A stretch of 32,000 nucleotides of DNA from Coleofasciculaceae cyanobacterium CTOTU46674. Lineage in GTDB: Bacteria > Cyanobacteriota > Cyanobacteriia > Cyanobacteriales > Coleofasciculaceae. Both the position numbers and the translations under genes were made by a program. Positions 4,473 to 25,581 of this stretch are shown in pieces. The stretch spans positions 12,137-44,136 of the forward strand of contig DALYLM010000033.1 of the NCBI GenBank assembly GCA_031976315.1, read 5' to 3'. Position 1 is the stretch's first letter. The number at the start of each line of letters is the position of its first letter. Under the pieces are notes generated by a model. The model did not search any database, was not told where the DNA came from, and saw only the letters and a list, made by a program, of their open reading frames with translations.

Positions 4473-6227
4473 TTAACTACCCCAAGTTAAGGTAAATCCA
4501 GAACTTTTGAGTTTTTTCACAAATTCCGGTAACTGATTCACTCCTTGCCGCTTCCACTCATTTAAACCAGGAGAATTACCGGAATTACCCCCATGAAATA
4601 GAGTGACAATTTCTAGATATTGATTACCACCAATCGGTAACATCCGATGCCAAACACAACTGACAGATGTTGGTCTGGAATCGCCTGGGTTTCGTCCGCC
4701 AATTGCTGGAGTTGTCTTAAATATTTCATTGTGAAATAACTCAATTGCTTGAGATTTAGCAACAACTTGGCTGTAAACACTTAAGCGTTGGGGACACCAA
4801 GATTCTTTCCAAGACAAGCATTGAATGGCTTTAGCATTAATTCCCAAATACTTGATTAACTCCTGACGTAACCCCTCTAAAAAGGTTTTCAAATCATTGC
4901 TATTTTTCATCGCGATCCGACCATCTTCAATCGCAGGAGCATCGTTTAAAGGACGATTGTTGAAATCGCTATCTAACCATTCCCAATGACAACCAATGGC
5001 ACGAGTTTTATAGTCAGAGAAAAAATCTTTATGCCAAACTCTTCGCCAGGATTTACCCAATCCTCCCATAATTAAAGTAAATTCCACAACCTTTTTCAGG
5101 AAATTAATATCTTGATTGGGGGCATCAAGATAGAATTGCCCTTTAGTTTCATAGACAGGTGTTTTTTCTATTCCCTGAGTGTCATATTTAGGAAATTCTT
5201 GGTTAGTCTGCCAATAAATTTGTAATTTGCCTGGATTGCCCGTATCTCCAAACAGGGTGCTAATCTTAGATTTGATCAGATTTTCATCGTTAGTGATACC
5301 TGCAAGTAAGCGATTGACATGACCTTTGAGAGTCGCTTTAAATACATTAGGTCGAAACTCTGGTTCATTACTGCGAAGCAAAGGACTAACACCGATTCCT
5401 TTGAGAGAAACCCACAGCGGATACTTATCTTGAGGGATAAAGCATAAACCATATCCTGTGCTGGTTTTACCCCCGATTCCCGCACGTAATGCCTGTTTTA
5501 ATAGTCCTTCAATCTTTTGCCATTCCTTGTCTGCTAAAGGTTTAGTACTGCTTAACTCAAAAACAAATGTTGGCTGATAGAAGCTAGCGATCGCAATTGC
5601 TTTGGGAGAACCCTTTCCTTGCACTTGTCGCTCCTGTTGCGGATGGACTACATCAATGAAACGATAGCAGATTTTTTCCTCATTATCCTTGACAACCGTT
5701 TTTGTCCCAGCCCAATCACCAATTGGATAAGCACCGTGAAATCTTAAAATTCCCTGTTGCTCCCCACTACCGCAATAGTACTCTTCATCCTGGCAATCGC
5801 AGACTCGGCGAAACAATCCTTTAATACCGCTTCCAGGAATAAAAGGAATACCATTTTTGCCAATAGTCGGACGCAAGATGCTATCCTGACCGCAATTGGT
5901 AAACACGCGGAAAGGAAAGTCAATTTTAATCCGGTACGCAGCACCATCTCGTCCTAGATGGGCTTCTGCATACTGATTAAATGGAGTGCTATCTTCAGAT
6001 TTAGGATAAACCCATTCTTCAGTCCATCGATCTAAATCTTGGTTATTTTTCGCATACTGTAAGCTACACCGTCCAGAGACTTGAGCGCGATACATCATTG
6101 GTACTTGTTCCGGATCGGGTTTTTCCCAGCAATCCTCCCTATCTTGGTCGGGAATATCGATATTACTCTTGCCACCTTTTTGTACCTGAGCTTTTTGCGC
6201 TCTTTGTAATGCTTTAGCAAAAACCAT
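4473..6227 (-). CDS. cmr6: Type III-B RAMP protein, an apparent Cmr6-Cmr1 fusion with two RAMP modules
   Basis: The N-terminal module has 'GIPFIPGSGIKGLFRRV' and the G-rich loop 'GIGGKTSTGYGL', typical of Cmr6. The C-terminal module has 'EFRPNVFKATLKGHVNRLL' and 'GGLGKSWRRVWH', which is Cmr1-like. It is the last gene of the cmr operon. Confidence 0.8.
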   Translation of the reverse strand: MVFAKALQRAQKAQVQKGGKSNIDIPDQDREDCWEKPDPEQVPMMYRAQVSGRCSLQYAKNNQDLDRWTEEWVYPKSEDSTPFNQYAEAHLGRDGAAYRIKIDFPFRVFTNCGQDSILRPTIGKNGIPFIPGSGIKGLFRRVCDCQDEEYYCGSGEQQGILRFHGAYPIGDWAGTKTVVKDNEEKICYRFIDVVHPQQERQVQGKGSPKAIAIASFYQPTFVFELSSTKPLADKEWQKIEGLLKQALRAGIGGKTSTGYGLCFIPQDKYPLWVSLKGIGVSPLLRSNEPEFRPNVFKATLKGHVNRLLAGITNDENLIKSKISTLFGDTGNPGKLQIYWQTNQEFPKYDTQGIEKTPVYETKGQFYLDAPNQDINFLKKVVEFTLIMGGLGKSWRRVWHKDFFSDYKTRAIGCHWEWLDSDFNNRPLNDAPAIEDGRIAMKNSNDLKTFLEGLRQELIKYLGINAKAIQCLSWKESWCPQRLSVYSQVVAKSQAIELFHNEIFKTTPAIGGRNPGDSRPTSVSCVWHRMLPIGGNQYLEIVTLFHGGNSGNSPGLNEWKRQGVNQLPEFVKKLKSSGFTLTWGS

Positions 6228-6286
6228 CGCTATCTATCCTTTGTTTGTTTCAACAGTTGACAGGTAAATTTGATCTAATTTAGCCC

Positions 6287-6787
6287 TTAACTATTGTTGT
6301 TCTCCTTTTTTTTATAACGTTGAGTCCACCAAACTAATGCCTCGCAGAACTGAGTCAGCACCATTAAGGCAATTCTTTGATCTGGCAACGGTATTTCCCA
6401 AATTTTCTTAGCCATACCTTGAATTTTTTTCGTTTCATCTGCCTCTTTTTTCTCTTTCTCTTCGCGAGTGCGATCGGGAAGGGTAGACTTCACATCATCA
6501 TTAGGCAACTTTACCCCAGCATCATCTAAGATTTTGACTAAATTATCCCAGACATCTTTCCAGTATGCCCCTTTTTCTTTACTGTCTTTATCGCGCTTCA
6601 GTCGTAAGTGTTCGCCCCAAAATCTTTCCAATCCATAAGCTACAGCCATTCTCATTTTATGAGACTCATTCAAAACATTTTTCTTGTCTCGATACTTTAG
6701 CACTAACAGTTGAGCTTCATAATCTAGATCGTAAGGTCGAAAAAAGTTTGTTTCTTTAGTAGCTTGATTTTCTTGTGTCTCAGTCAT
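6287..6787 (-). CDS. cmr5: Type III-B small subunit (Cmr5/Cas11-like)
   Basis: A 166-aa, predicted helical, K/E-rich protein in the canonical position between cmr4 and cmr6. The call rests mainly on position. Confidence 0.6.
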   Translation of the reverse strand: MTETQENQATKETNFFRPYDLDYEAQLLVLKYRDKKNVLNESHKMRMAVAYGLERFWGEHLRLKRDKDSKEKGAYWKDVWDNLVKILDDAGVKLPNDDVKSTLPDRTREEKEKKEADETKKIQGMAKKIWEIPLPDQRIALMVLTQFCEALVWWTQRYKKKENNNS

Positions 6788-6834
6788 AAACTTACCTCCT
6801 TGAATCAGTTGTATTTCCTGGAATTAAGGCTGCT

Positions 6835-7692
6835 TTAATTAGAATTATGAGATTTTAACCAAACTTCAGTTCGACCAAAACCAATCGATTCTAACCCACC
6901 AAAATAAAGTTCTTTCCCTTGGTCAATAAATTTGCCATCAGTTAAAAATTCTTCCCAATCCACAGTCTTGCTATCATAGGTTTTCCGCATAGCAATGGGA
7001 AATACCATTACCGTGCATTCTGGTAAAGCTTCCACATCAAAAAAAGCTCCTTTTTTCGCTTTCTTTTTGTCTGGTTCAAGTGAAACGCGACTCTGACGAT
7101 AAAGTGCCATATCGTGAATCATAGATATCTCCTTATCATTAACAACCACCAGCAGATGTTTGTTGGCATCGTCAACTTCTTTAGGAATGCAGTTGGCTAA
7201 GTCTTTATCCTCTTGCTTGAGTTTCAGAAATCCCAAGTTAAAAAAGAGAGTTTTACCAGAAGCTTTGCCAAAGTAGCTATAAGGTTTAAATTCCGTTACG
7301 GTTTGACCTGTTACCTTTTGATAGCGTTTCAGCAAAGCCGGACAAGAAACTCTAACAATTGGTTGATTGGGACAATAAACGGGAATCCAAACCAGGGAAG
7401 CATATTCAAATTTAATGATTCCTTCAGTGGTATTATTCTCAGTAGTATCCTTTGATTCATCAGATTTCGATTGACTGGGAGAAGCTTCTTTGCCATACCA
7501 GTAATCAACTTTTCCTTTTTCCTGACGCATATCCGCCCGAAACCGACCCCGAATCGAACTCCCAGGAATAATCCCCGTCTGAGTAAATTGATCCCGAAAA
7601 ATCAGGTTCAAATTACCCGTTTCTTCACCCGCAGTTGCACCCACATGGAGTGGTGCTTGGGTTTCAATAATGCCGTAAGCTTTTTTGTACAT
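6835..7692 (-). CDS. cmr4: Cmr4 (Cas7-family backbone RAMP, target-RNA cleaving subunit)
   Basis: 'APLHVGATAGEETGNLNLIFRDQFTQTGIIPGSSIRGRFR' matches the Cmr4 N-terminal signature, including the Asp in the 'FRD' context. The C-terminal G-rich loop is 'GGLESIGFGRTEV'. Confidence 0.85.
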   Translation of the reverse strand: MYKKAYGIIETQAPLHVGATAGEETGNLNLIFRDQFTQTGIIPGSSIRGRFRADMRQEKGKVDYWYGKEASPSQSKSDESKDTTENNTTEGIIKFEYASLVWIPVYCPNQPIVRVSCPALLKRYQKVTGQTVTEFKPYSYFGKASGKTLFFNLGFLKLKQEDKDLANCIPKEVDDANKHLLVVVNDKEISMIHDMALYRQSRVSLEPDKKKAKKGAFFDVEALPECTVMVFPIAMRKTYDSKTVDWEEFLTDGKFIDQGKELYFGGLESIGFGRTEVWLKSHNSN

Positions 7693-7720
7693 TGTTAACT
7701 CTCCAAATTATACGATGATT

Positions 7721-7783
7721 GTTCGTAGTAGGCACTTCAGTGCCTCAAAATCGTCTATTTGCACTAAAGTGCTTACTACGAAC
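7721..7783. repeat. Structured stem-loop repeat (GTTCGTAGTAGGCAC family) within the cmr3-cmr4 intergenic spacer
   Basis: The outer inverted repeat is gttcgtagtaggcac...gtgcttactacgaac. Two inner mini-hairpins are present (ggcac-ttca-gtgcc and gcac-taaa-gtgc). Related copies lie at 982-1007, 25718-25782 and 30577-30600. Confidence 0.75.
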
Positions 7784-7801
7784 TTAATTTACGAACTTGA
7801 T

Positions 7802-10826
<3,025 letters not shown>

Positions 10827-10863: not shown

Positions 10864-11727
10864 TTAGAGATGAAAAATTGAATCGACATCAATCAGAATA
10901 GGTTTAATTTCTCCTTGGGATAAAGGTTCCCCTTGCCAATCTCGTTTTGAATCCATATACTGCATCTTCCGCTTGGGAGAAGAAATGCAAGCCATCGCTA
11001 GGGCAACGCTCATCATTTTCGTTCCTCCAGTAATATCGGCAACTATCACTTCATCTTTATAGCCGGAATTCTCAAAAATTTCCTGGACTATTTGGCAAAG
11101 TTTAAGATAGTTCCAGCTTTCAACTGTGTAATCTTGACCTCGATTAATTGTCAGTTGGCAATTATACTTAAACAGTGTATATCTGGCTAAGATTTCAGCC
11201 GCGATTTCGGAACCTCTCTCGCCTCGGCTATCTGGGGTAGCCAAAAACCAAAGTTCATGTAAGATCCCGGAGTCAGCATGGAACTTGATTGCTTCAATTT
11301 GCGGACGTAAGTTAGAATTGAAAATATCGATATTGGTAAAATCTTCTTCGGTTAATTGGGTGATTAATGTTTGGCGAATTTTTTTGACCAAAGGTTCCAA
11401 AACTTGAGGATCTCTGAGATGTGGTTGGCTGGGAGAATAGGTACTTAAAAGTAAAATTAATCCCTTGGCTGGTGCAGGCGGTTGTGGTTTAAGAAAAAGA
11501 AAGGATTGTTCCTTTAAATATTTAATTCTCTCTTGAGATTTTTGGAGATCCAACCACCACCAAATTATAAAAATAATTATAGTTCCCACTAATCCAACTG
11601 GATTGAATTCAGTGAGTTGAGTCATGATGATAGTTACTACCACAAAGCCCAAAAACTGCCAAGGGGAATTCGGCGCTAAAAGTTCTTGGATGGAAAATTC
11701 TGGTTTGGTTTTGGACTTCAATATCAT
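10864..11727 (-). CDS. Membrane-anchored CARF protein (two TM helices plus CARF, Cam1-like architecture)
   Basis: There are two hydrophobic helices at the N-terminus: 'WQFLGFVVVTIIMTQL' and 'VGLVGTIIIFIIWWWL'. The CARF-type strand 1 is 'GLILLLSTYSPSQ' and the pocket motif is 'VADITGGTKMMSVALAMA'. It is the first gene of the cmr operon, ending 37 bp upstream of cas10. Confidence 0.75.
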   Translation of the reverse strand: MILKSKTKPEFSIQELLAPNSPWQFLGFVVVTIIMTQLTEFNPVGLVGTIIIFIIWWWLDLQKSQERIKYLKEQSFLFLKPQPPAPAKGLILLLSTYSPSQPHLRDPQVLEPLVKKIRQTLITQLTEEDFTNIDIFNSNLRPQIEAIKFHADSGILHELWFLATPDSRGERGSEIAAEILARYTLFKYNCQLTINRGQDYTVESWNYLKLCQIVQEIFENSGYKDEVIVADITGGTKMMSVALAMACISSPKRKMQYMDSKRDWQGEPLSQGEIKPILIDVDSIFHL

Positions 11728-12187
11728 TGCTTACCTACCACTCATTGCTGATTTCTACAGTATACGGTTAATTGGAAAGGTCTTTTTCCTGAGTATTTAT
11801 GCTTAGTAGATGACTGGGGATGGGGAGTCCCCCACAAAACTTGAAAACCAGCACCAGCCACAGGATTATTAGCCCTCCTGTGTAAATCGTATCTTCATCA
11901 AAAAGCGATCGCATTTTGCGAGTTGGCAGAATTGCGATCGCACTTATGATACATTGCGATTGTAACCCCGATTAATCGCCAGTTTGTAACCATACTTAAA
12001 TCAAGATCTTTTGTCTATGTAGTATCTATGTAGGGGTGAATGACATGGGCGATAATTTATGTTGAAAACCCTGGATATACAGTCCATATCCTTCACCCTC
12101 TCCTGGAGATCTAAACACGCCCTAGGCGATAATTTATTTGTTGGAGATGTCTATTGGACAATTCCTTCCTCAATGGGATTGAAAATG

Positions 12188-12266
12188 GGAGCATCCCGTG
12201 AGGGAAGAAATGCAGGTTGTATTCTTGCTCCCCCCTTTCACAAGGGGGGCTGGGGAGGTAAAAACC
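12188..12266. repeat. Small palindrome-containing repeat (CCCCCC-N8-GGGGGG, 'GGWGG' element), left copy of an inverted pair
   Basis: Its reverse complement aligns with 13873-13962, sharing gtttttacc..ccccagcc..cttgtgaaa.gggggagcaagaatacaa..atttcttc..gggatgctccc. It overlaps the stop codon of the JAB-E1 CDS. Confidence 0.75.
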
Positions 12267-13648
12267 TAAGCTACCTCTGAATCCCGATATTCTGAATTAC
12301 AAAAATAACAATCAGGAGTTACCAAATAATCAGTATTAGTCTTGTGCCACTTGCACTCCGGAAATTCATAAATCCAATCCAAACCAGCATCCACATTCAA
12401 AAAGCCTCCCACCATACCCTGAATAATACCAACTCCCGTGCTAGCACAGATACTATTTAACCAAAATACCGCCGGATCGTTAATACCAGATAAATAACCC
12501 GCTTGTGCTGCCATATTTTCAATCTCAACCGCAGCAGATTCTAAAGCCGCCCTTTGTAGATTAATAATATTACCGCACATCAAACACCAACCACCTCCTA
12601 ATGGGGGAACAGTGACGCGACAATACATCCGAGGAGTACCATTCGGTTTTACCTCAATATGAGTACCCAAACAAATCAAAGGACGCATATATTTTAAAGA
12701 TAATTCTTGGGCAATTTGTCGGGAATAGTGATTATCTGTAGCCACAACAATTAAATCGGAAGCTGCAATTTCCGATTCCACTAATCCATTTTCAACAGAA
12801 GTAGGTATTGCTTTGACACAAGAACCCGTGCGATAAATTTGTTTAATTAATTGCTTGACATATTCAACCTTATGCCACCGCCAATCTACCATTTTCTCGG
12901 TTGCACCCACCATGCGATTTAGATTGCTTCTTTCCAACCTGTCTGGATCGACCAAAACCCATTTTTTTACCCCTAAACGCCCTAATTGTTCGGCAAAAAC
13001 TGACCCGATTCCTCCACAACCAATTAAGGTAACAGTCAATTGTCCTAATCTGGCTTGAAAAGTTTCGCCAAATACTTTTTGCCGATTAAACATTTCATCA
13101 TTTTTCCTCATAATTGAGGTAGATTCCGGTAATTCAAACCAAGAATCAGAAAAACGCACCCTTTCAAAACCCGTCCCTTTCTTATACCAAATTCGGAATT
13201 GAGATTTCTGCAATGACTCATCAAAAACACCAGAAATTAACCGAGGTTTTTGCTGAAAACGAGAAGAAAGAAATCGAGCATATTCAGATTCATAACGGTC
13301 ATCAACGCAAGAAAAACAAGGAGTACTTTCTCCAGCATGAGTGTGAATGTGAACCACATCCAAATCACCTGGCTGGAGATATTTTTCTAATAAATAGAGG
13401 TGAAATTCTTGTTTAATAACCAACCCGCTAGCTGATTGACGTTCGTAGCAATCTGAAGTGGGAACTATCCAAGATTGAGGTACATATCTGACTTTATCTT
13501 TTCCCAGTTGATGGCGCTTACAGAATAAAAACCCGATTACTTCGTCATTATTATTGGTACGATTCTGTAGCATGACATGGCGGAATTCTTGCCAGAGGGA
13601 AGGGGAAACATGGAGAGAGTTTTTGGGTAAATTGGCGGAGTTATTCAT
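12266..13648 (-). CDS. JAB/JAMM deubiquitinase-like domain fused to an E1-like (ThiF/MoeB-family) adenylating domain
   Basis: The N-terminal JAMM elements are 'DEVIGFLF' (Glu) and 'VHIHTHAGESTPCFSCVDD' (HxH...SxxD). The E1 Rossmann fold shows 'LIGCGGIGSVFAEQLGRLGV' and 'VLVDPDRLERSNLNRM'. Two CxxC pairs, 'CLMCG' and 'CYFCN', fit the E1/MoeB zinc site. Confidence 0.85.
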   Translation of the reverse strand: MNNSANLPKNSLHVSPSLWQEFRHVMLQNRTNNNDEVIGFLFCKRHQLGKDKVRYVPQSWIVPTSDCYERQSASGLVIKQEFHLYLLEKYLQPGDLDVVHIHTHAGESTPCFSCVDDRYESEYARFLSSRFQQKPRLISGVFDESLQKSQFRIWYKKGTGFERVRFSDSWFELPESTSIMRKNDEMFNRQKVFGETFQARLGQLTVTLIGCGGIGSVFAEQLGRLGVKKWVLVDPDRLERSNLNRMVGATEKMVDWRWHKVEYVKQLIKQIYRTGSCVKAIPTSVENGLVESEIAASDLIVVATDNHYSRQIAQELSLKYMRPLICLGTHIEVKPNGTPRMYCRVTVPPLGGGWCLMCGNIINLQRAALESAAVEIENMAAQAGYLSGINDPAVFWLNSICASTGVGIIQGMVGGFLNVDAGLDWIYEFPECKWHKTNTDYLVTPDCYFCNSEYRDSEVA

Positions 13649-13757
13649 AGTTTTAGTTGAGAAATGATTGAATGATTTGTTGAGGTTGATTATAGATAAT
13701 TCAGGATTTTTGACTGAATCTTTTTCTCGGGATCGGAATTGTCACTAATTTTGATAA

Positions 13758-13843
13758 CCGACAGAGAATAAATTCTCTGTCTAAAAGCTCAAGTCCATTA
13801 AAATGGAGTGAAATTCTGATGCTAGTCGGTTTTAACCGACTTT
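13758..13843. repeat. Divergent partial copy (hairpins 1-3) of the multi-hairpin element seen at 16885-17041 and 18211-18367
   Basis: gacagagaataaattctctgtc / agtccattaaaatggagt / agtcggttttaaccgact. Hairpins 1 and 3 carry compensatory changes relative to the other copies. Confidence 0.7.
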
Positions 13844-13872
13844 GGGAGGATCCCACTTTGGCCAAGATACTT

Positions 13873-13962
13873 GTTTTTACCAAAGTTTCCCCCCCCCAGC
13901 CCTGCTTGTGAAACGGGGGAGCAAGAATACAATATGTATTTCTTCTAAATTGGGATGCTCCC
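13873..13962. repeat. 'GGWGG' palindromic element, right copy and inverted partner of 12188-12266
   Basis: See 12188-12266. The ORF-track entries 13701..14003 and 13842..14069 are translations of this repeat. Confidence 0.75.
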
Positions 13963-14047
13963 CCGACTTTAGCTATAATACAGTGATTAAAACTACTGTC
14001 CAACTATCGTACTTCCGTACTTTTTTTTACTGGCGCACTATCCTACT

Positions 14048-14530
14048 TTATTCCTCATTAATTGCATGACGAGCTGTAATAAATAAAGTAGCCAAATTAT
14101 GTCCATTTCCCGGAGAATTACTAGGTCGCCAAGAATTGAGCCATCTCTCTCGATTAAAGCCACCACCTAGTCCAACACAATACCAATACCAGCCTTCCTC
14201 GCTTAAAAATGGTGCGCCATAATAGCTTTGTCGAGTAAAGTGATGATCTCCTTCTCCTACAGTATTCCAAGGATAATTGAGATAGCAGCCAATTGGTGGC
14301 AGTCGAGGATAATCTGGTGGTAACAAAAACAGGATATCCGAGTTGGTGACTGTGAATTTTTTCGATGATAAAGGCATTCTTTTTACCATTATGGCGGTGT
14401 ATTGAATACCGCTAATGGTTTTACCACCTACGATCGCATTTTTGGCGACTCTTTCCAGAATTTTCAGTTCAGCGGTTAGTCTGGCTGTCGGCTGAAATCC
14501 AGAAGTGCGGGAATTAATGGTAATCGTCAT
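14048..14530 (-). CDS. E2-like (UBC-fold, prokaryotic E2 family) protein
   Basis: 'LFLLPPDYPRLPPIGCY' resembles the UBC xPxxYPxxPP motif. Candidate catalytic cysteines are C82 and C118 ('WYWYCVG'). The start codon is 9 bp downstream of the Ubl stop. Gene context includes a Ubl and an E1. Confidence 0.6.
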   Translation of the reverse strand: MTITINSRTSGFQPTARLTAELKILERVAKNAIVGGKTISGIQYTAIMVKRMPLSSKKFTVTNSDILFLLPPDYPRLPPIGCYLNYPWNTVGEGDHHFTRQSYYGAPFLSEEGWYWYCVGLGGGFNRERWLNSWRPSNSPGNGHNLATLFITARHAINEE

Positions 14531-14539
14531 GATTCTCCT

Positions 14540-14737
14540 TTATCCTTTGACAATTTTGGGGACTGTCCAAACTTTTGAACCTTCTTTAAGGGCTTCGTTT
14601 TCCTTTAAAGGTTTGGTTCCGCTAAACCCTTCTTCCATTACGTCATCATTGCCAATTTCTGGTAATCTGGTTCTTAATTCTTCCACGGTTGTTCCATTGG
14701 GTAAATCGACTAATTTCCCGTTAATTACTGCTCTCAT
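14540..14737 (-). CDS. Ubiquitin-like beta-grasp protein (ThiS/MoaD/Ubl-like) ending in Gly
   Basis: A 65-aa protein, 'MRAVINGKLVDLPNGTTVEELRTRL...VWTVPKIVKG*'. The size, the alternating strand/helix pattern and the free C-terminal glycine fit a conjugatable Ubl. It lies directly upstream of the E2-like gene. Confidence 0.65.
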   Translation of the reverse strand: MRAVINGKLVDLPNGTTVEELRTRLPEIGNDDVMEEGFSGTKPLKENEALKEGSKVWTVPKIVKG

Positions 14738-14825
14738 TTGATTTTCCTCTATTTAGCTTTGCTTCTCAGTCATTGAGCTAGGATATATTTGAATTAGGTG
14801 TTGCCTATTTTCTCTTTTCATTTTC

Positions 14826-15203
14826 CTATTTAGGATCGAGGATGATTCCAGAAAGTTGTTGGGAATTTTCTTGACATGACTTAGCCAAGAAACTGATGTT
14901 TAACCCGAGAGAGAATAACCCCACAATTACGAAAAAAGATGCGATGATTGTGGTAGCAAGTAATTGATTGTACAGCCCTTCAATTTTTTCAAGAGAGCCT
15001 CTCACACTTTTGAGCTGATTTTGGTATTCTTTCCTCTCTTGTTGTTGGGTTGTGAGAAGTTGGCATTCTAAGCGTTTAATTTGTTGGCTGAGGTTAGTAA
15101 CTTGTGCGTTAACGCACTCCAACTCGTTTGATTCTTGAACAATTAATTTGCCATTAACCATTTCCATGGTGTTTTTGGTTCTAATTTGAGGTAGAGCAAG
15201 CAT
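14826..15203 (-). CDS. Coiled-coil protein with a C-terminal transmembrane helix (function unknown)
   Basis: The central segment is Q/E/L-rich with heptad character ('NLSQQIKRLECQLLTTQQQERKEYQNQLKSVRGSLEKIEGLYNQL'). It is followed by the hydrophobic 'IIASFFVIVGLFSLGLNISFL'. It lies 33 bp downstream of the NYN gene. Confidence 0.5.
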   Translation of the reverse strand: MLALPQIRTKNTMEMVNGKLIVQESNELECVNAQVTNLSQQIKRLECQLLTTQQQERKEYQNQLKSVRGSLEKIEGLYNQLLATTIIASFFVIVGLFSLGLNISFLAKSCQENSQQLSGIILDPK

Positions 15204-15235
15204 CGTCTAATTCCTTGTTGCTGACATAAAGTGAA

Positions 15236-15823
15236 TTAATCAAAGAGATTAGCGTTACCAATTCTGTGATAGTTTTGCTGGTTGTTTTGTTGTTGAAAAT
15301 TATCAAATACTCCGATTAAATCGATAACGCTGCTGGCAGAAACTTTTAAGTCATTACCCAAAGATTGTTCGACAGAAGCCACTTCTACTCGCATTCCCCG
15401 TCTTCTCAATTTTTCAGCTAAATAGGCGAAGTCAGAATCTCCGGTGACTAAAACAACAATATCGGGACGAACTTCTAAGGCTAATTCAATCGCATCCATT
15501 GCCATGACGATATCAATATTGGTTTCGTATTCCTCACCTTTGGCTTTTCCTTCTTTGACAACAACTAAAAAGCCATTACTTTTTGCCCAATAGATGAATT
15601 TTTCCTTGGTTTTTCGTTGTTCTTCAAATCTTTCTCGCGCTGGGGGTAGCCCAACGTAGATTACCATTTCAATTAATTCTCTCCCTTCTCTGGGGTCCGC
15701 GAGATACTCGCGAATTTTCTGCCAGTCGATTCTGCGGTTAAAGCTTTGTGCGGATAGGAAGGTATTGTCGCTATCGGCAAAAATTAGTACCCGACGAGTT
15801 TGACTCATGATGTTTTGTCGCAT
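15236..15823 (-). CDS. NYN-domain (LabA-like) putative ribonuclease
   Basis: 'RVLIFADSDN' and 'IVVLVTGDSDFAYLAEKLRRRGMRVEV' match the acidic NYN/LabA signature. The true start may be the internal Met at 'MSQTRRV'. Confidence 0.75.
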   Translation of the reverse strand: MRQNIMSQTRRVLIFADSDNTFLSAQSFNRRIDWQKIREYLADPREGRELIEMVIYVGLPPARERFEEQRKTKEKFIYWAKSNGFLVVVKEGKAKGEEYETNIDIVMAMDAIELALEVRPDIVVLVTGDSDFAYLAEKLRRRGMRVEVASVEQSLGNDLKVSASSVIDLIGVFDNFQQQNNQQNYHRIGNANLFD

Positions 15824-16095: not shown

Positions 16096-16437
16096 CTACT
16101 TTTGAGGACGAATTACTCTAATTAATTTGCCTCTTAAAGTATCCTCACTAACAATTGCTTCATCGATTCGTATTGCTTGTCTTTCTATGTTTAAGTCTTC
16201 TTTACAGATGATAATTCCGAAATGGTGAGGTTGTCGGCGATGTAGTTGTCGGAAATCATCCCAATTACGTGTCAAAACGGCACGTTCATCCTTGATGGCA
16301 AAGGCTAAAACTTCCTCATCGGGAATCCCTAATCCAGAGTTTCCTGCTTCTCTAGAAGTAAGAATATCATGACCTGCAATCCGCAGTATTTCTATAATGG
16401 GTAAAGGGAAGTTTTCATCAGCATAGAGACGCGCCAC
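16096..16437 (-). CDS. DUF5615-family PIN-like toxin
   Basis: 'MARLYADENFPLPIIEILRIAGHDILT...VLTRNWDDF' is typical of DUF5615 (Mut7-C-like). It is separated by 2 bp from the upstream DUF433 gene. Confidence 0.7.
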   Translation of the reverse strand: MARLYADENFPLPIIEILRIAGHDILTSREAGNSGLGIPDEEVLAFAIKDERAVLTRNWDDFRQLHRRQPHHFGIIICKEDLNIERQAIRIDEAIVSEDTLRGKLIRVIRPQK

Positions 16438-16439
16438 TT

Positions 16440-16766
16440 TTAGTCTTCCTCATTTCTATGGATTGCTGCTTCAATTTCCTCTGAGTGCGCATTTGCATAA
16501 GCCCAAGCATTGACTAAATCTCCTGCACTCAAATCAGGAAAATCCTGTAAGATTCTTGCATCATTAGCACCTAAGCGCTGATAATTAACTAAAGACCAAA
16601 CAGGGATGCGAGTTTTGGCGATTCTGGCATCACCGCCACAGATACCTGGAGTTTTTTCAATGCCTTGCCAAATATTACTTAAACTCTGTGCTAAAAGTTG
16701 TATGGCTTGTGCTTTTTCTGCCACAGTTAAGGCAAGGAGTTGAGGTTCTAATTCTTTTAGTGTCAT
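16440..16766 (-). CDS. DUF433-family antitoxin-like protein
   Basis: 'TPGICGGDARIAKTRIPVWSLV' is the DUF433 core. It is paired with DUF5615, as in known two-gene modules. Confidence 0.7.
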   Translation of the reverse strand: MTLKELEPQLLALTVAEKAQAIQLLAQSLSNIWQGIEKTPGICGGDARIAKTRIPVWSLVNYQRLGANDARILQDFPDLSAGDLVNAWAYANAHSEEIEAAIHRNEED

Positions 16767-16884: not shown

Positions 16885-17041
16885 GAGCCAAACCAGCCGT
16901 AGAATTAATTCTACGGCTAATAGCTCAAGTCCATTAAAATGGACTAAAATTATCATACTAGTCAGTTTTAACTGACTTAAGCTATTAGGCAGTGGTTTAA
17001 ACCACTGCCGGGTTATTGCGAAAGATGAGCTATCCTCCTGA
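16885..17041. repeat. 157-bp multi-hairpin (four stem-loop) element, copy A
   Basis: ccgtagaattaattctacgg / agtccattaaaatggact / agtcagttttaactgact / ggcagtggtttaaaccactgcc. It is a near-identical direct repeat of 18211-18367. Its last 12 bp supply the final codons and stop of the Rpn-family CDS. Confidence 0.85.
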
Positions 17042-18576: not shown

Positions 18577-19047
18577 ATGGCACTCTCTACTACTTACAAT
18601 AAACCTGCAATTCCTACAGAGGCAGATGCCAAGCTTTCTCAAGAAAGTAGCCGCATTTTGGCATCACATCTTCGCCTCAAACAGCCGACGAAGCAACTTA
18701 AAGTGGTTGAAGAGGATGGAAGGGAACAGACGGTCGAAATCCCCACAGCCGCATTTAATCTCCTAGTGGATATTCTCTCACTTATGGCTCAGGGGAATAC
18801 GGTTACCCTCATCCCTATCCATGGGGAACTCACGACTCAGGAAGCAGCAGATATCTTGAATGTATCCCGCCCATTCCTTGTCAAGCAGATTGAATCAGGT
18901 TTGCTACCCTGTCGCCGTGTGGGAAGGCATCGCCGCATTCTCTTTGAAGATTTAATGATGTATAAACAAATAGTTGATAGCAAGCGGATGGAAGCCCTGG
19001 ATCAACTTGCGGCTCAAGCGCAAGAGCTGAAGATGGGTTATGACTGA
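18577..19047 (+). CDS. Excisionase-family HTH DNA-binding protein (antitoxin-like)
   Basis: 'LTTQEAADILNVSRPFLVKQIESGLLPCRRVGRHRRILFEDL' is an excisionase/MerR-type HTH. It overlaps the downstream PIN gene by 8 nt. Confidence 0.7.
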   Translation: MALSTTYNKPAIPTEADAKLSQESSRILASHLRLKQPTKQLKVVEEDGREQTVEIPTAAFNLLVDILSLMAQGNTVTLIPIHGELTTQEAADILNVSRPFLVKQIESGLLPCRRVGRHRRILFEDLMMYKQIVDSKRMEALDQLAAQAQELKMGYD

Positions 19048-19698: not shown

Positions 19699-19707
19699 AC
19701 AATTACT

Positions 19708-21859
19708 GTTTCCAACTAATCCGATTTAACCCAATCGGTAGGGAAATTAGCACAACTGAATGTAGAAATTGTAATGGTTTCCAACTAATCCGATTTAACC
19801 CAATCGGTAGGGTGCAAAGGGGACCCCAAATTGGCTATGATTCAGCCGTTTCCAACTAATCCGATTTAACCCAATCGGTAGGGGGAGAAAAATGTATTTA
19901 ATACGTTTGGCTATTTGGGTTTCCAACTAATCCGATTTAACCCAATCGGTAGGGTGTTGGCTATTTGTATTTGGGCAATATTCGTCTTAATTGTTTCCAA
20001 CTAATCCGATTTAACCCAATCGGTAGGGTCACACGCAGTTGCCTGTGATGGCGAAGCTGCACAAACGTTTCCAACTAATCCGATTTAACCCAATCGGTAG
20101 GGACGTAAGTGGCGGAAATAAACGCAGGATCGCCTGCGGTTTCCAACTAATCCGATTTAACCCAATCGGTAGGGATTACTAGGTGTGGTTGGGAGACTTC
20201 TATCTTAGACATGTTTCCAACTAATCCGATTTAACCCAATCGGTAGGGGTCAAAATCAACAGCTCAGTTGCTTGCAACAGTTTGAGAATCGTTTCCAACT
20301 AATCCGATTTAACCCAATCGGTAGGGGTTAAAGACCGTTCCACTGGAGCCCAAATCGTCTGTTTCCAACTAATCCGATTTAACCCAATCGGTAGGGATAC
20401 GGCTCGAGGCCGGAGAATGGACCATTAGTTTTAAGTTTCCAACTAATCCGATTTAACCCAATCGGTAGGGAATTCTCCTACGATTATTGGGACGGTTTGG
20501 GTTTAAAAGTTTCCAACTAATCCGATTTAACCCAATCGGTAGGGGGTTAGGAGCTTCAAATAATGAAACGCTGTTTTAGTGTTTCCAACTAATCCGATTT
20601 AACCCAATCGGTAGGGAAATTATTTTTCCGCTTTGAGCGGCATGCATCAAATCCGGTTTCCAACTAATCCGATTTAACCCAATCGGTAGGGTCAGGTTGT
20701 AGTTGCCACGGTCATCATAGATGATAATTTTGGGTTTCCAACTAATCCGATTTAACCCAATCGGTAGGGAAAAGGAGCACAAGATGTTTGACCCCACGAA
20801 AGTAACGTTTCCAACTAATCCGATTTAACCCAATCGGTAGGGAACCTGCAAAGGTTCTGGGGAAGTCAAGAAATAGACTGTTTCCAACTAATCCGATTTA
20901 ACCCAATCGGTAGGGCCTGCCCAGCTGGTGGGAATCACGATACTTTTCCAGTGTTTCCAACTAATCCGATTTAACCCAATCGGTAGGGCTGAAGACCGGT
21001 CCCTGGACAGTGGTTTTCGTACCTGAGTTTCCAACTAATCCGATTTAACCCAATCGGTAGGGCTTGTCCAATTCAGGTGTCGGTGAAACCAAACTTCGTG
21101 TTTCCAACTAATCCGATTTAACCCAATCGGTAGGGACACAAAGATAGTCAGCATGCTAGCCTTGGCTGGATTGTTGTTTCCAACTAATCCGATTTAACCC
21201 AATCGGTAGGGTTAAGTGTTCTGAATGAAGATGCATGTGCCAGTGAGAAAAGTTTCCAACTAATCCGATTTAACCCAATCGGTAGGGAAAATCAGAATTT
21301 AGATGAGTTCAACTCGTTTGTTTCCAACTAATCCGATTTAACCCAATCGGTAGGGGCAGGTACGGCAGCCGGAGAAACAAAGCAAGATTCAATCTCGTTT
21401 CCAACTAATCCGATTTAACCCAATCGGTAGGGGTTCTTTCCTGGAGGAAACATGAAAAAATCTGGTTTCCAACTAATCCGATTTAACCCAATCGGTAGGG
21501 TTTAAAGGTACCCCCAAGGGTATCAAATATCCATCTCCTTGTTTCCAACTAATCCGATTTAACCCAATCGGTAGGGTTTTATTCGGGGTTGCCTCAACCC
21601 CAATTGTATATGTTTCCAACTAATCCGATTTAACCCAATCGGTAGGGGCAGGAAACATGTTGGACTCTGGAAAGGTATTTGTTTCCAACTAATCCGATTT
21701 AACCCAATCGGTAGGGATAATGAGAACAACATATTTCTCGTACGGAGATAAAGTTTCCAACTAATCCGATTTAACCCAATCGGTAGGGACATATTTCCAG
21801 TATGGAAAGGCTTCCTATATGGAGTTTCCAACTAATCCGATTTAACCCAATCGGTAGGG
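19708..21859 (-). CRISPR. CRISPR array 2: 30 repeats of 36 nt and 29 spacers of 32-42 nt, with the same repeat as array 1
   Basis: Repeat starts are 19708, 19777, 19848, 19919, 19993, 20067, 20139, 20213, 20291, 20361, 20435, 20509, 20581, 20656, 20734, 20807, 20880, 20953, 21027, 21100, 21176, 21252, 21320, 21397, 21465, 21541, 21612, 21681, 21753 and 21824. The leader and cas2 are at the high-coordinate end. Confidence 0.98.
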
Positions 21860-22066
21860 AGTTCGTCCAGGAGCCTTTACCCAGTAAGGGTTTCAGCCGC
21901 CAAATCGACACACCTCTCCGAAGTATAGCAGATCTTCCCAAAAATTGTCAAAAACACACCCCTCAAACCCTTACCCTGTAAGCCATCGACACACCTCAAC
22001 GAAAACAATAGGGTTTCGGGGATTTGCCGAGGTGTGTAGATGACGATGTTACAAATTGCCTGAAAC
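21860..22066 (-). promoter_or_regulatory. CRISPR leader 2, homologous to leader 1 and abutting the cas2 stop codon
   Basis: It aligns with 3779-3988. The triple motif here is ATCGACACACCTC: direct at 21904-21916 and 21985-21997, inverted with one mismatch at 22029-22041. Confidence 0.85.
21922..21951 (-). promoter_or_regulatory. Predicted sigma70-type promoter of array 2
   Basis: The minus strand reads TTGACA (21951-21946), 18 nt, TATACT (21927-21922). It is positionally equivalent to the leader 1 promoter. Confidence 0.5.
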
Positions 22067-23193: not shown

Positions 23194-25581
23194 TTACATA
23201 GCCCTCAAAAAGGCTTCATAAGGAACACCAGATAATAAACTTCGTTTATATCGTCTTACCTGTAACTGAATTGCATGACGATAAGTGACTGGAGACTGCA
23301 AATCCGAATGAGAAACTTCTTCATTCATCCTCATTTCAAACTGTTTGAGAAAAACTCGCCTCGCGGATTGATTCAAATAAACTCCCCCGGTACTAGGAAC
23401 TAAGTCAAAATCTTGGGTTTTGAAGATATTATTGTTAACAATTTTCAAAACCAAGCTATCAACCACAGGAGAACGAAACTCCTCCATCAAATCAAAAGCC
23501 AGATAAGGCTTTTGCTTCTCCCCATAGTGAAAATTCCCCAAATAAGGACAAAGCCCCTCAGCAATCAGAAAACTCAACACATTATTAAACAAAAGAGTAT
23601 AACCAAAACTCAACAAAGAATTCACCGGATCAGTTGGAGGTTGCCGATTCCGGAGACAAAACTCAAACTTATTATTAGTAATCAACTTCCCAAAAGCGGG
23701 AAAATACCTCGCCGCCCCAATTCCCTCATAACCCCGTAAAGCATCCAAATTATCCACCATTTCCAACGCCTCAATATCCCGATCAATCCCCACAATCGCC
23801 TTCTCCACTTCACTCAATTTCCGCTTCCGATTAAAACGCAACAAAAGCTGCTTAGAATTAATCAACTTCCCATAAACAATTGCCCTCGACATATTAAACT
23901 GAAAATAAATATCCTTCAGTTTCTCCACCTGTACCAACTCATTCTCCAGATGTCTTGACTCAGCACTCCACAAATGACCGTGATATTGACCGCTTTGACT
24001 CAAAAACAACACAGCAATTTCTGACTCCAAACAAGCTTGAATCACCGGAGTTGACAACTGAATATTACCAAACACCATAATTTGCTGCACTTCCCGAATC
24101 GGGACTTCCAATTTCGGCTTATCCGACACATGAATAATAAACCGCTGGTAATCTTTATAAATACTCGTTCCTTGTTCCACTAGATAGATAGCTGCCATTT
24201 CTTTATGCCAAATATTTCGTTGAAAAACACTATTTTTTTCTTCATTTTGGGGAGGAGATTCTCTTTCTACTTCGGCGAGGAATGGTTGATGTAAAGTTGC
24301 GATATCTCTGGTATCCTGATTTTCACCTGATTCTATAGGATGTGCTTTAAAATCAGGAGATCCCCCCCAACCCCCCTTAAAAAGGGGGGAGAATTGTGTC
24401 AAAGTCCCCCTTAGTAAGGGGGATTTAGGGGGATCTTCCTCCCTCAAAGTCCCCCTTAGTAAGGGGGATTTAGGGGGATCTTCCTCCCTCAAAGTCCCCC
24501 TTGATAAGGGGGATTGAGGGGGATCTAAATCTTTTTTTTTACCCTTCTTCCCCCCTCGTATCAACCCCTCAACCTTATCCAAAGCCGACTTCAAACTCAC
24601 CTCATCAGCATCAACCGGAAAAATTGCATCATCAAAAAAACCATGACCTAAAAACCGAAACCCACAATCAAAACTAGTAATCTTCGTCTTCTCAGGATGA
24701 ATCGCCAATCCCATCGACTCCAACAAATCAATCACTTCTAAATTAGCTTGGTAAATTCGTTCCTCACTCTGAGCTAAAACCAAAAAATCATCAGCATAGC
24801 GCACCAACTTTAAATCAGTAGCAGTTAACCACTCATCAAACTCATGCAAATAAATATTCGCCAACAAAGGAGAAATTACCGCACCTTGAGGAATACCCTT
24901 TTGCGATAATACCAATCCTTCCGGAGTTACCACCCCAGTCGATATCCAAGACTTAATCAAACATAAAATTCTGGGATTATCTATATGTAACCTAAATTCC
25001 TTCAATAACCTGTGATGGTCAATATTATCGAAAAACTTGACAATATCCGCATCCAACACCCAACGATATCCCAAATCCCGCCAATCAGCCACCTTTTCCA
25101 CCGCATTAATATAAGATAAGTTCCGACGATAAGCAAAACTAGCCGCCGAAAACTTCTCCTCCATTAACGGATAAAGTACATTTAATAAAGCTTGCTGTAC
25201 AATCCGATCCCTAACAGTTGGTATTTTTAACTCCCTTTGCTTCCCATCGCGCTTAGGAATAACTACTTGTTGATAAGGAGCAGGTTGATAAGTTGTATTA
25301 GCCACAGCCTCCCGTAATTTATAGATATTCATGGTTTGATTCCGGGCAAACTTATCAATACTTTCCCCATCTACTCCCGCACAACCCTTATTTTCCGCCA
25401 CTTTTGTCCAGGCTTGACAAAAGTTTTCTAAACTAAGGAATCGATCCAGAATAGTTGATAAAGAGACTTCCTTATTGAGGTGAAAATTCTCAGAAATTAT
25501 GCCAGTCATAGCGATCATTTTATATTGAATTAATTCCACCATAGCATATAGCAAGAAAAGGGGCTTTCCAACAAGCCACAA
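23194..25581 (-). CDS. cas1: Reverse transcriptase-Cas1 fusion (group II intron-like RT plus Cas1 integrase)
   Basis: The RT motifs are 'CAGVDGESI', 'IPQGAVISPLLANIYL' and 'YADDFLVL'. The Cas1 part runs from 'AAIYLVEQGTSIYKDYQRFIIH' to 'LMEEFRSPVVDSLV' and the C-terminus. There is no Cas6-like N-terminal domain. The ORF-track start at 25581 is TTG. More plausible ATG starts are at 25542, 25518 or 25509. Confidence 0.9.
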   Translation of the reverse strand: MWLVGKPLFLLYAMVELIQYKMIAMTGIISENFHLNKEVSLSTILDRFLSLENFCQAWTKVAENKGCAGVDGESIDKFARNQTMNIYKLREAVANTTYQPAPYQQVVIPKRDGKQRELKIPTVRDRIVQQALLNVLYPLMEEKFSAASFAYRRNLSYINAVEKVADWRDLGYRWVLDADIVKFFDNIDHHRLLKEFRLHIDNPRILCLIKSWISTGVVTPEGLVLSQKGIPQGAVISPLLANIYLHEFDEWLTATDLKLVRYADDFLVLAQSEERIYQANLEVIDLLESMGLAIHPEKTKITSFDCGFRFLGHGFFDDAIFPVDADEVSLKSALDKVEGLIRGGKKGKKKDLDPPQSPLSRGTLREEDPPKSPLLRGTLREEDPPKSPLLRGTLTQFSPLFKGGWGGSPDFKAHPIESGENQDTRDIATLHQPFLAEVERESPPQNEEKNSVFQRNIWHKEMAAIYLVEQGTSIYKDYQRFIIHVSDKPKLEVPIREVQQIMVFGNIQLSTPVIQACLESEIAVLFLSQSGQYHGHLWSAESRHLENELVQVEKLKDIYFQFNMSRAIVYGKLINSKQLLLRFNRKRKLSEVEKAIVGIDRDIEALEMVDNLDALRGYEGIGAARYFPAFGKLITNNKFEFCLRNRQPPTDPVNSLLSFGYTLLFNNVLSFLIAEGLCPYLGNFHYGEKQKPYLAFDLMEEFRSPVVDSLVLKIVNNNIFKTQDFDLVPSTGGVYLNQSARRVFLKQFEMRMNEEVSHSDLQSPVTYRHAIQLQVRRYKRSLLSGVPYEAFLRAM
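24400..24525. repeat. In-frame 45-bp tandem repeat (about 2.8 copies) inside the RT-Cas1 linker, followed at lower coordinates (24358-24392) by a 'GGWGG' palindromic element
   Basis: The unit is caaagtcccccttagtaagggggatttagggggatcttcctccct, at 24400-24444, 24445-24489 and a partial copy at 24490-24525. It translates as EEDPPKSPLLRGTLR on the minus strand. Each unit contains a CCCCCTTAGTAAGGGGG palindrome. Confidence 0.9.

Follow-up and report, generated by a model that had tools for sequence, protein, structure and literature searches.

Ubiquitin-like protein (Ubl) conjugation in bacteria has been described for the CBASS Cap2/Cap3, Bil and Bub systems. In class '6e' of Iyer et al. (2006), a JAB-E1 fusion stands with a polyUbl, a metal-binding protein and an E2/RWD-like protein described as 'inactive'. 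This class, 6e or '6E.1', was renamed Bub in a 2024 preprint from the Corbett laboratory (10.1101/2024.11.21.623953), where Type I Bub has three proteins, the Ubl-E2 fusion BubAB, the JAB-E1 fusion BubCD and the DUF6527 serine protease BubE, and where the chemistry runs through oxyesters on BubCD Tyr370 and on BubB Ser333, the latter acting with His335 and Asp299. The same preprint reports that Bil and Bub operons are autonomous, and CRISPR is unmentioned in it. Bil tags a phage tail protein. Here a 32,000-nt stretch of the genome of a Coleofasciculaceae cyanobacterium (contig DALYLM010000033.1, positions 12,137 to 44,136), referred to as the window, was analysed. It carries, upstream of a type III-B CRISPR operon, a cassette of five genes encoding an NYN ribonuclease (RNase), a small membrane protein, a Ubl, an E2-like protein and a JAB-E1 fusion.

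Some of these families were already known in a CRISPR setting. Shmakov et al. (2018) found CorA, DHH and NYN proteins with type III-B, with ThiF, JAB and ubiquitin unmentioned, and the CRISPR-associated NYN protein of Bacteroides fragilis is a Mn-dependent RNase acting on single-stranded RNA that probably trims CRISPR RNA (crRNA) (Chi and White 2024). In the supplement and the Fig. 6D legend of Altae-Tran et al. 2023 (PMC10910872), the five-gene set is listed as UAS-33 with an association score of 34/50. UAS-33 matches the cassette in its five gene families and in its CRISPR linkage, and its representative E2 gene is 486 nt long, as in the cassette family. The entry gives a label and a score only, with no Bub homology, catalytic analysis or mechanism, and no discussion of it was found in the Altae-Tran text. 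A literature search for BubCD or Ubl systems tied to CRISPR returned this catalogue line only. The window appears to be a member of UAS-33, and its locus adds one more member to a kind that is catalogued but uncharacterised. On balance, we favour the view that the cassette is a CRISPR-embedded accessory module whose core is a predicted ubiquitin-like conjugation pathway of the Bub (6E.1) lineage.

Conservation of the five-gene cassette

The initial annotation of the window had placed five co-oriented open reading frames (ORFs) on the minus strand and assigned them to an NYN protein, a coiled-coil protein with a transmembrane (TM) segment, a beta-grasp Ubl, an E2-like protein and a JAB-E1 fusion. 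All five were found where it had put them and on that strand, and all of the domain calls hold (Table 1). The gaps it gave between the genes, 33, 88 and 9 nt, were right for the last two. The NYN-to-small-protein gap was 32 nt, not 33, and a true start of the small protein at the conserved Met13 would widen it to 68 nt.

For comparison, 80 genome loci were fetched, one per species, and their ORFs were searched with the window proteins. Counts on cassette composition refer to those 69 loci in which 2.3 kb or more of upstream sequence precedes JAB-E1. The E2 was present in 69/69 loci, and the Ubl and the NYN protein (phmmer E about 1e-95 to 1e-113) were present in 66/69 each, in the fixed order NYN, small protein, Ubl, E2, JAB-E1 on one strand. 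An orthologue of the small protein was found by phmmer in only 44 of the 69 loci. Nevertheless, an ORF of like architecture (an N-terminal M-x-T-x-N-G-K-L, a coiled coil, one C-terminal hydrophobic helix and a polar tail) occupied the NYN-Ubl interval at virtually every locus, missed by phmmer or not. The same gene order was seen in about 70 cyanobacterial genomes. These findings show that the five-gene arrangement is far beyond chance and that the cassette is a real, conserved unit, bearing out the proposed linkage of the NYN and coiled-coil/TM genes to JAB-E1. The linkage had also been called unusual, a description that does not fit, as the PADLOC models 'CorA-like', 'LabA-like NYN' and 'CARF, 2 TMs' already flag these families as CRISPR-linked and the five-gene set is UAS-33.

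The JAB-E1 protein had 311 database relatives, essentially all cyanobacterial and 60-73% identical, and no relative was found in phage records. Orthologous cassettes (JAB-E1 62-67% identical) were located on the large plasmids NZ_CP026682.1, NZ_CP025929.1 and CP150887.1 of Nostoc, Microcystis and Aphanizomenonaceae, so the CRISPR locus with its cassette is at least sometimes plasmid-borne. In the RefSeq annotation of the Microcystis plasmid, the small protein, the Ubl and the E2 are each labelled 'hypothetical protein'. Outside cyanobacteria, NYN, Ubl(-E2) and JAB-E1 were kept in L076 (a Planctomycetota metagenome-assembled genome), L081 (GCA_015231535.1) and L082 (Logan SRR27730036). The NYN gene lay directly 5' of distant Ubl-E2 fusions in a JGI contig, in L081 and in the Logan metagenome contig L082. 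The order in L081 was RT-Cas1 (a fusion of a reverse transcriptase, RT, to Cas1), Cas2, a membrane protein (279 aa, Gly/Ala-rich), NYN, Ubl-E2, JAB-E1 and a sigma-54-type AAA+ protein. In L082, a sigma-70 gene preceded NYN and an extra 147-aa gene lay between Ubl-E2 and ThiF.

The acidic motifs FADSDN and TGDSDF of the NYN protein were conserved among its orthologues. A second, longer NYN-like gene (about 320 aa) was divergent and lay just upstream of the cassette NYN in at least 12 loci, and it was absent from the window. It gave weak phmmer matches (1e-4 to 1e-6), and its size fits the 310-position PADLOC 'LabA-like NYN' model. It was on the minus strand at L005 6512-7480, L007 6449-7417 and L013 6747-7715, and likewise in L014, L018, L019, L021, L028, L029, L031, L034 and L075.

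The small membrane protein has a coiled coil and one C-terminal TM segment, its only hydrophobic segment, and measures 113-125 aa. Its start is probably the conserved Met13 (ATG at 15167), from which the window protein reads MEMVNGKLIV; a start of the form M-x-T-[ILV]-N-G-K-L-[IV] was present in at least 53/69 loci (L005-L079). This N-terminus (window 15167-15130) closely resembles the first strand of the Ubl, MRAV[IV]NGKLVDLP (14737-14700). The likeness is at the protein level and not in the DNA, where the codons differ. The MxTxNGKL segment may serve both proteins as a docking strand for E1, E2 or JAB, or it may be left over from a duplication of the Ubl.

The label 'CorA-like' comes from PADLOC and the Altae-Tran catalogue, and the PADLOC match (PDLC01177) spans the whole length of the small protein. 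Pfam gave no family for it, and no Pfam CorA match at E<0.1. A G-[MILF]-N-type motif ([GSA][MILVF]N) was found at the TM end in 29/69 orthologues, and the window protein has G-L-N there (14880-14900). Many orthologues (L005, L012, L013, L016, L021, L029 and others) close the TM segment with F-G-[MI]-N-N-Q-P, which recalls the GMN signature of CorA after TM1. The GMN-like motif lends weak support to the label despite the missing Pfam match. CorA proteins have a cytoplasmic alpha/beta domain, a long stalk helix and two TM helices with GMN after the first; the small protein is not built in this way, and true CorA membership was rejected on its single TM helix, its lack of a cytoplasmic domain and the absence of a Pfam match.

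The gap between the E2 and JAB-E1 genes was mostly 40-300 bp in orthologous loci, compared to 399 bp in the window. No convincing terminator was found in this gap, and promoter and terminator scans were uninformative on co-transcription. A 77-nt inverted repeat (81% complementary) flanks the JAB-E1 gene, with one arm (13886-13962) inside the gap and the other (12187-12263) just beyond the JAB-E1 stop. A short element near 16900, which translates as ...HFNGLELL..., is related to it. Both are probably small dispersed cyanobacterial repeats or miniature inverted-repeat transposable elements. For the five cassette proteins, NCBIfam gave no curated family above threshold.

Relationship to the Bub lineage

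The JAB-E1 protein has one ThiF domain, at residues 191-361, with the JAB domain N-terminal to it. The best solved-structure match of its profile was Citrobacter BubCD (5e-22), collinear over residues 35-404 and covering both domains. An authentic Type I Bub operon for comparison was present on a plasmid of Pseudanabaena PCC 7367 (L124), where genes for a multiubiquitin protein, ThiF and DUF6527 are preceded by HTH and ImmA/IrrE genes; Pseudanabaena is a species named in the Bub preprint (10.1101/2024.11.21.623953). Aligned with this BubCD by hhalign, JAB-E1 scored 99.8% probability (E=2.7e-28) over 367 columns. The JAMM motif recognised by the initial annotation is intact. Its zinc ligands had to be corrected to H102, H104 and D116, with E36 and S113, on the BubCD alignment, in which E36, H102, H104, S113 and D116 stand opposite BubCD E28, H91, H93, S101 and D104. 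These five residues and the adenylation motifs were invariant in 23 orthologues, as were the E1 glycine loop (GCGGIG), NLNR (242-245) and the CxxC pairs at 355/358 and 447/450 that had been pointed out before. Also invariant in the 23 was G384-Y385, whose tyrosine aligned with BubCD Tyr370 ('GY') in both comparisons. There was no conserved Cys between C358 and C401. The PADLOC E1-E2 models matched only residues about 198-325, the adenylation core. Mean column identity was 63% for JAB-E1, 82% for the E2 and 90% for the Ubl.

The Ubl, which ends in KIVKG, matched the Pfam ThiS-like family at E=1.8e-4, just short of the Pfam threshold, and this family matched 26/26 of its orthologues. It was modelled by AlphaFold2 (AF2), as part of a natural Ubl-E2 fusion, as a beta-grasp with bb-a-bb-b topology (pLDDT 74-88). 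The Foldseek neighbours of the model included ThiS 1zud_2 (TM-score 0.70), MoaD, SAMP1 and TtuB. Pfam, AF2 and Foldseek all indicate the beta-grasp fold on which the initial annotation had staked its cassette interpretation. PKIVKG, including K64-G65, was invariant in the Ubls. It was followed directly by the stop in 45/77 and otherwise by a variable tail of 2-8 aa, as in an example that ends in ...KIVKGSRIWDLKF. Natural Ubl-E2 fusions also occur in the family, with the junction exactly between KIVKG and M (for example P0152). In the window, Ubl and E2 have a gene each, with 9 nt between the two, and the Ubl already ends at Gly65. To judge from the sequences, an invariant PKIVKG followed by a non-conserved tail is the classic precursor pattern for JAB processing, and the tails together with the fusions imply proteolytic maturation for conjugation.

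For the E2, the Pfam Prok-E2_E family gave a partial match in the window protein (3.7e-4) and matched 40/40 orthologues. From a shallow multiple sequence alignment, AF2 modelled the Ubl part of a natural Ubl-E2 fusion well and the E2 half poorly. A diverse alignment, obtained by exhaustive HMMER search, was then used and gave a model with UBC topology (pLDDT 87.8, pTM 0.85) and the elements H16-28, E32-39, E42-53, E63-70, E81-84, H127-133 and H146-158. C118 lies between beta4 and alpha2. The Foldseek matches of the model were all UBC/UEV, with the best TM-score for Citrobacter BubB 9eae_C (probability 0.97, TM-score 0.63). Moreover, the broad E2 profile matched canonical UBC enzymes by sequence at 4e-6. 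Model, structural neighbours and profile agree on the UBC fold, the other point on which the cassette interpretation had been made to depend. Sequence searches of the PDB yielded less: a cyanobacteria-only E2 profile found nothing meaningful there, and BubB was retrieved neither with a profile of the C-terminal half nor with the single distant relative P0311.

Across 30 relatives, with identities as low as 23% and with full-length Prok-E2_E members above the Pfam threshold among them, Cys118 was invariant, and His97 was nearly so. The catalytic position was mapped by hhalign against the authentic BubAB of the Pseudanabaena plasmid (98%, E=2e-13). In this alignment, W-S-R-H of BubB stands opposite W-Y-C118-V-G, so that C118 aligns with the serine of the BubB S-x-H motif and there is no His at +2. 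As read from the alignments, the E2 clade of the cassette has a Cys at the catalytic position and is without the Ser-His-Asp set.

The cassette is therefore like Type I Bub in its JAB-E1, homologous over its full length to BubCD with JAMM, adenylation site and crossover-loop Tyr, in its Prok-E2_E member, in the C-terminal Gly of its Ubl and in the BubAB-like Ubl-E2 fusions of some family members. It differs in the invariant Cys of the E2, compared to Ser-x-His (plus Asp) in BubB, and in having a single 65-aa Ubl, compared to 1-3 beta-grasp domains plus N-terminal domains in Bub. In addition, Ubl and E2 are separate genes in the window rather than a BubAB fusion, NYN and the small membrane protein are obligatory, and the cassette sits in type III-B/RT-Cas1 loci. 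No DUF6527 (BubE) match was obtained in Pfam scans of the window ORFs of at least 90 aa, all but three short overlapping ones, and the Bub regulators CapH/CapP or CapW were absent among the window ORFs scanned. By its sequence relationships, the cassette belongs to the Bub (6E) lineage.

This placement changes part of the initial reading. A Ubl-conjugation cassette tied to type III-B stands, whereas kinship with Bil and the novelty of the JAB-E1 fusion do not. The nearest characterised family to the supposed Bil-like variant is Type I Bub (hhalign 99.8% for the E1 and 98% for Ubl-E2). The fusion of the deubiquitinase-type JAB domain to the E1, regarded as unusual, is a defining trait of class 6e (Iyer et al. 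2006) and of BubCD, and it is not new because both already have it. Bil (BilA Ubl, BilB E2, BilC JAB, BilD E1), which is antiviral, shares with the cassette a Ubl with C-terminal Gly, a Cys-type E2, a JAB and an E1. In contrast to the tandem inactive/active adenylation domains and Cys domain of the Bil E1 and its separate JAB, the cassette has a single adenylation domain fused to JAB and a crossover-loop Tyr, not Cys. Membership in Bil was rejected on this E1 architecture, the nearest structure being BubCD and not a Bil E1. CBASS Cap2/Cap3 also combines an E1-type adenylation domain with a JAB and is tied to nucleotide-signalling immunity. However, Cap2 fuses an E2 to the E1, the JAB is a protein of its own (Cap3), the cyclase (CD-NTase) itself is conjugated and there is no Ubl gene; membership was rejected on domain arrangement and the dedicated Ubl gene of the cassette.

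Association with type III-B CRISPR loci

A CRISPR component (Cmr genes, RT-Cas1 or an array) was present at all loci flanked on both sides by 4 kb or more (47/47), and likewise at all those flanked on both sides by 8 kb or more (35/35), in agreement with the type III-B association noted initially. The nine loci without a CRISPR component were short contigs. Among the 35 fully flanked loci, Cmr genes were found in 22, RT-Cas1 (within 10 kb) in 28 and an array in 31; in 11 of the 35, RT-Cas1 was present with no Cmr genes within 10 kb. The usual order, on one strand, was RT-Cas1(-Cas2), array, cassette, a variable sensor/effector gene and Cas10-Cmr3-4-5-6. These findings show that the cassette itself is essentially always CRISPR-linked, with L082 excepted among distant relatives. 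The linkage is a genomic association only.

The identity of the adjacent Cas10 was 37-77% across loci, and the Cas10 translation in the window contains the GGDD motif. The gene in the slot after JAB-E1 also varied while the cassette was constant throughout: CARF-2TM in the window (10864-11727), a TM-SAVED protein in L006 (3611-4747, Pfam SAVED 2e-22), TIGR03985 in Microcystis and Csx1 in others. The slot lies at 13477-14895 in L125 and at 6757-8748 in L081, where it holds the sigma-54-type AAA+ gene; the N-terminus of this AAA+ protein looks CARF-like by eye only, with no profile behind it. In the window, the distance from the cassette to the CARF-TM/Cas10 operon, given before as about 540 bp, was measured as 538 nt.

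The type III-B CorA/NrN/NYN set of B. fragilis, which works with SAM-AMP signalling, is similar in that NYN and a 'CorA'-labelled protein accompany a Cmr operon. In contrast, the membrane protein of the cassette, at about 110 aa, has one TM and lacks the cytoplasmic domain of CorA, and the cassette is without NrN or a SAM-AMP lyase and has a full Ubl cascade. The CARF, SAVED or Csx1 sensors adjoining Cas10 imply cyclic oligoadenylate (cOA) signalling, compared to SAM-AMP in B. fragilis.

Table 1. Cassette genes and CRISPR features of the window (positions are those of the 32,000-nt stretch)
Feature	Position	Strand	Evidence
NYN-domain ribonuclease, 195 aa, cassette gene 1	15236..15823	-	Pfam NYN E=2e-26; PADLOC 'LabA-like NYN' 2.8e-8
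Small tail-anchored membrane protein 'CorA-like', 125 aa	14826..15203	-	PADLOC PDLC01177 E=4.7e-13
Ubiquitin-like protein, 65 aa, ThiS-like beta-grasp, ends Gly65	14540..14737	-	Pfam ThiS-like; AF2
E2/UBC-fold protein, 160 aa, Prok-E2_E family, invariant Cys118	14048..14530	-	Pfam, AF2, hhalign
Enlarged E2/JAB-E1 intergenic gap, 399 bp, dispersed small repeats	13649..14047	.	77-nt inverted-repeat arm at 13886-13962
JAB(JAMM) peptidase-ThiF-type E1 fusion, 460 aa, BubCD homologue	12266..13648	-	ThiF E=1.6e-26
CARF + 2 TM membrane sensor/effector, 538 bp downstream of cassette	10864..11727	-	PADLOC 'CARF, 2 TMs' 1.3e-21
Type III-B effector operon: Cas10/Cmr2, Cmr3, Cmr4, Cmr5, Cmr6	4473..10826	-	PADLOC Cas10b 1.4e-168; Pfam Cmr3, RAMPs
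CRISPR array, about 30 repeats of 36 nt, co-oriented with cassette	19707..21860	-	36-nt repeats
Second CRISPR array, about 20 repeats, downstream of Cmr6	2328-3778		
RT-Cas1 fusion (adaptation module)	23194..25581	-	Pfam RVT_1 2e-37, Cas1 1e-84

Arrays stand on both sides of the cassette and Cmr block in the window. Read on the minus (cassette) strand, the CRISPR repeat ends in ...GTTGGAAAC, and by comparison with typical repeat ends this suggests that the array is transcribed in the cassette direction. In several other loci, a co-oriented array ended less than 300 bp upstream of NYN. Between array and cassette the window has two toxin-antitoxin-like pairs (16096-16766 and 18577-19624), DUF433/DUF5615 on the minus strand and HTH_17/PIN_3 on the plus strand, and also, at 17030-18163, a YhgA-like transposase-family gene. 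The two pairs and the transposase-family gene resemble insertions into the locus. In the RT-Cas1 gene, the linker between RT and Cas1 contains a 45-nt tandem repeat (24399-24526; 2.8 copies, 96% matches) that would encode a repeated 15-aa segment. No Cas6 gene was found among the window ORFs scanned, and an Rfam search of the window gave no RNA family. Beyond the initial annotation, the analysis of the cassette and its setting thus added Cys for Ser in the E2, the lack of BubE, the conserved E1 Tyr, the Ubl-E2 fusions, the two flanking arrays and RT-Cas1.

Predicted pathway and alternative explanations

In the pathway that we favour, the JAB domain would trim the residues after Ubl Gly65, which in other species are a short tail or a fused E2, and the ThiF-type E1 domain would adenylate Gly65. 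The Ubl would then pass to Tyr385 in the crossover loop, as it does in BubCD, and from there to E2 Cys118, forming a thioester there, unlike the serine oxyester of Bub, and the E2 would transfer it to lysines of a target. NYN and the tail-anchored 'CorA-like' protein may fill the place of the BubE protease as an output or partner arm, for example as a membrane-tethered or Ubl-controlled RNase, and the module would act within the type III-B/RT-Cas1 immune response. The target is probably a conserved one (host, Cas side or within the cassette) and not a fast-evolving phage protein, because column identity is 90% for the Ubl and 82% for the E2, compared to 37-77% identity for Cas10.

A more specific form of this pathway can be put forward tentatively. 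Ubl conjugation could be a built-in branch of the type III-B/RT-Cas1 system that uses a hybrid relay from E1-Tyr to E2-Cys, either on detection of target RNA or constitutively, and attaches the Ubl to NYN, to the 'CorA-like' protein or to a Cas component, thereby switching on or localising the RNase/membrane arm.

Several observations weigh against a CRISPR-embedded role. When Cas10 was used as bait in metagenome contigs, the cassette lay within 10 kb at 9/16 loci with at least 6 kb upstream and was absent from the other 7/16 related Cmr loci, and because these lack it the cassette is an optional accessory, dispensable for Cmr function. In the distant relative L082, which carries NYN, Ubl-E2 and JAB-E1, no cas genes lie within about 8 kb. 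No CARF, SAVED or other nucleotide-sensor domain was found in the five cassette proteins with Pfam, PADLOC or NCBIfam, so nothing visible connects Cas10 signalling to the cassette. Finally, the crRNA-trimming proposal for the NYN protein of B. fragilis would make NYN a part of the CRISPR system and not of the Ubl system.

Three of these observations would be expected if the cassette were instead a stand-alone Bub/Bil-like antiphage system that shares the CRISPR defence island, tags phage or host proteins on its own trigger and uses NYN as its own effector, with no coupling to type III: the CRISPR-free L082, the lack of a cOA-sensor domain and the 7/16 Cmr loci without a cassette. The autonomous work of Bil and Bub operons (10.1101/2024.11.21.623953) points the same way. 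However, this explanation is unlikely in the light of the CRISPR linkage at 47/47 adequately flanked loci and of a position and strand between array and Cmr genes that are fixed across many genera, with the cassette adjoining RT-Cas1-Cas2 even in the non-cyanobacterial L081. The very high conservation of the E2 and Ubl is also unlike a phage-facing recognition surface, and CapH/CapP or CapW, which regulate Bub, are absent in the window.

The initial annotation had also suggested, more speculatively, an action on Cas10/CARF signalling by analogy with Cap2/Cap3. Here the Ubl would modify Cas10, another Cmr subunit or the CARF/SAVED effector, priming or restraining nucleotide signalling, and JAB would reverse it. 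CBASS gives the Cap2/Cap3 precedent for conjugation-based control, the sensor gene and Cas10 directly follow the cassette on its strand, and an E2 this highly conserved suggests a target that is itself conserved and not a phage protein. No direct support for such an action was obtained, and we think it improbable. CBASS conjugates the C-terminus of the cyclase with no Ubl, whereas the cassette has a dedicated one; 7/16 related Cmr loci do without the cassette; and in 11/35 fully flanked loci it stands with RT-Cas1 and no Cmr genes within 10 kb. In addition, the Cmr operons and sensors next to it are diverse (Cas10 at 37-77% identity; CARF-TM, TM-SAVED, TIGR03985 and Csx1), whereas the cassette is constant.

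An RNA-processing role is about equally doubtful. NYN would then trim crRNA intermediates, or RNA substrates for spacer acquisition by RT-Cas1, and the Ubl system would control the stability or localisation of NYN. The ssRNA-cleaving NYN protein of B. fragilis, a proposed crRNA trimmer (Chi and White 2024), speaks for this, and the array end less than 300 bp upstream of a co-oriented NYN at several loci, RT-Cas1 as the most frequent neighbour (28/35 loci) and the lack of Cas6 among the window ORFs scanned are consistent with it. However, a helper of this kind leaves a full conjugation cascade and a membrane protein unexplained, L082 carries NYN, Ubl-E2 and JAB-E1 without CRISPR, and related Cmr loci function without the cassette.

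A ThiS/ThiF-type sulfur carrier, with the Ubl thiocarboxylated for thiolation rather than conjugated to protein, would suit the best family and fold matches of the Ubl (ThiS, MoaD, TtuB) and the ThiF/MoeB-like CxxC zinc site retained in the E1, but this role is very improbable and was rejected on the conserved E2 with its invariant Cys, the JAB peptidase, the maturation implied by the Ubl tails and Ubl-E2 fusions, the homology to protein-conjugating Bub and the absence of a rhodanese domain or sulfurtransferase partner in Pfam and NCBIfam searches.

What is new here compared to the one-line UAS-33 entry is the Bub homology, the catalytic residues, the precursor tails and fusions and the quantified linkage. 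Work on bacterial Ubl conjugation (CBASS Cap2/3, Bil and Bub) and on type III CRISPR signalling is active, and no experiment joins the two fields. The cassette is CRISPR-linked, highly conserved and compact, which makes a connection between Ubl conjugation and CRISPR directly testable, with catalytic predictions at Tyr385, Cys118, Gly65 and the JAMM site. It raises the questions of which protein inside the CRISPR locus would be the Ubl target, and of whether an RNase/membrane effector or the Cas machinery itself would be controlled. The cassette is also a natural comparison for Bub chemistry, with the same E1 Tyr and an E2 Cys in place of Ser. If the CRISPR branch proposed above is true, it would be the first Ubl modification controlling CRISPR immunity, and the relay would be a mechanistic intermediate between the thioester and oxyester chemistries of ubiquitination.

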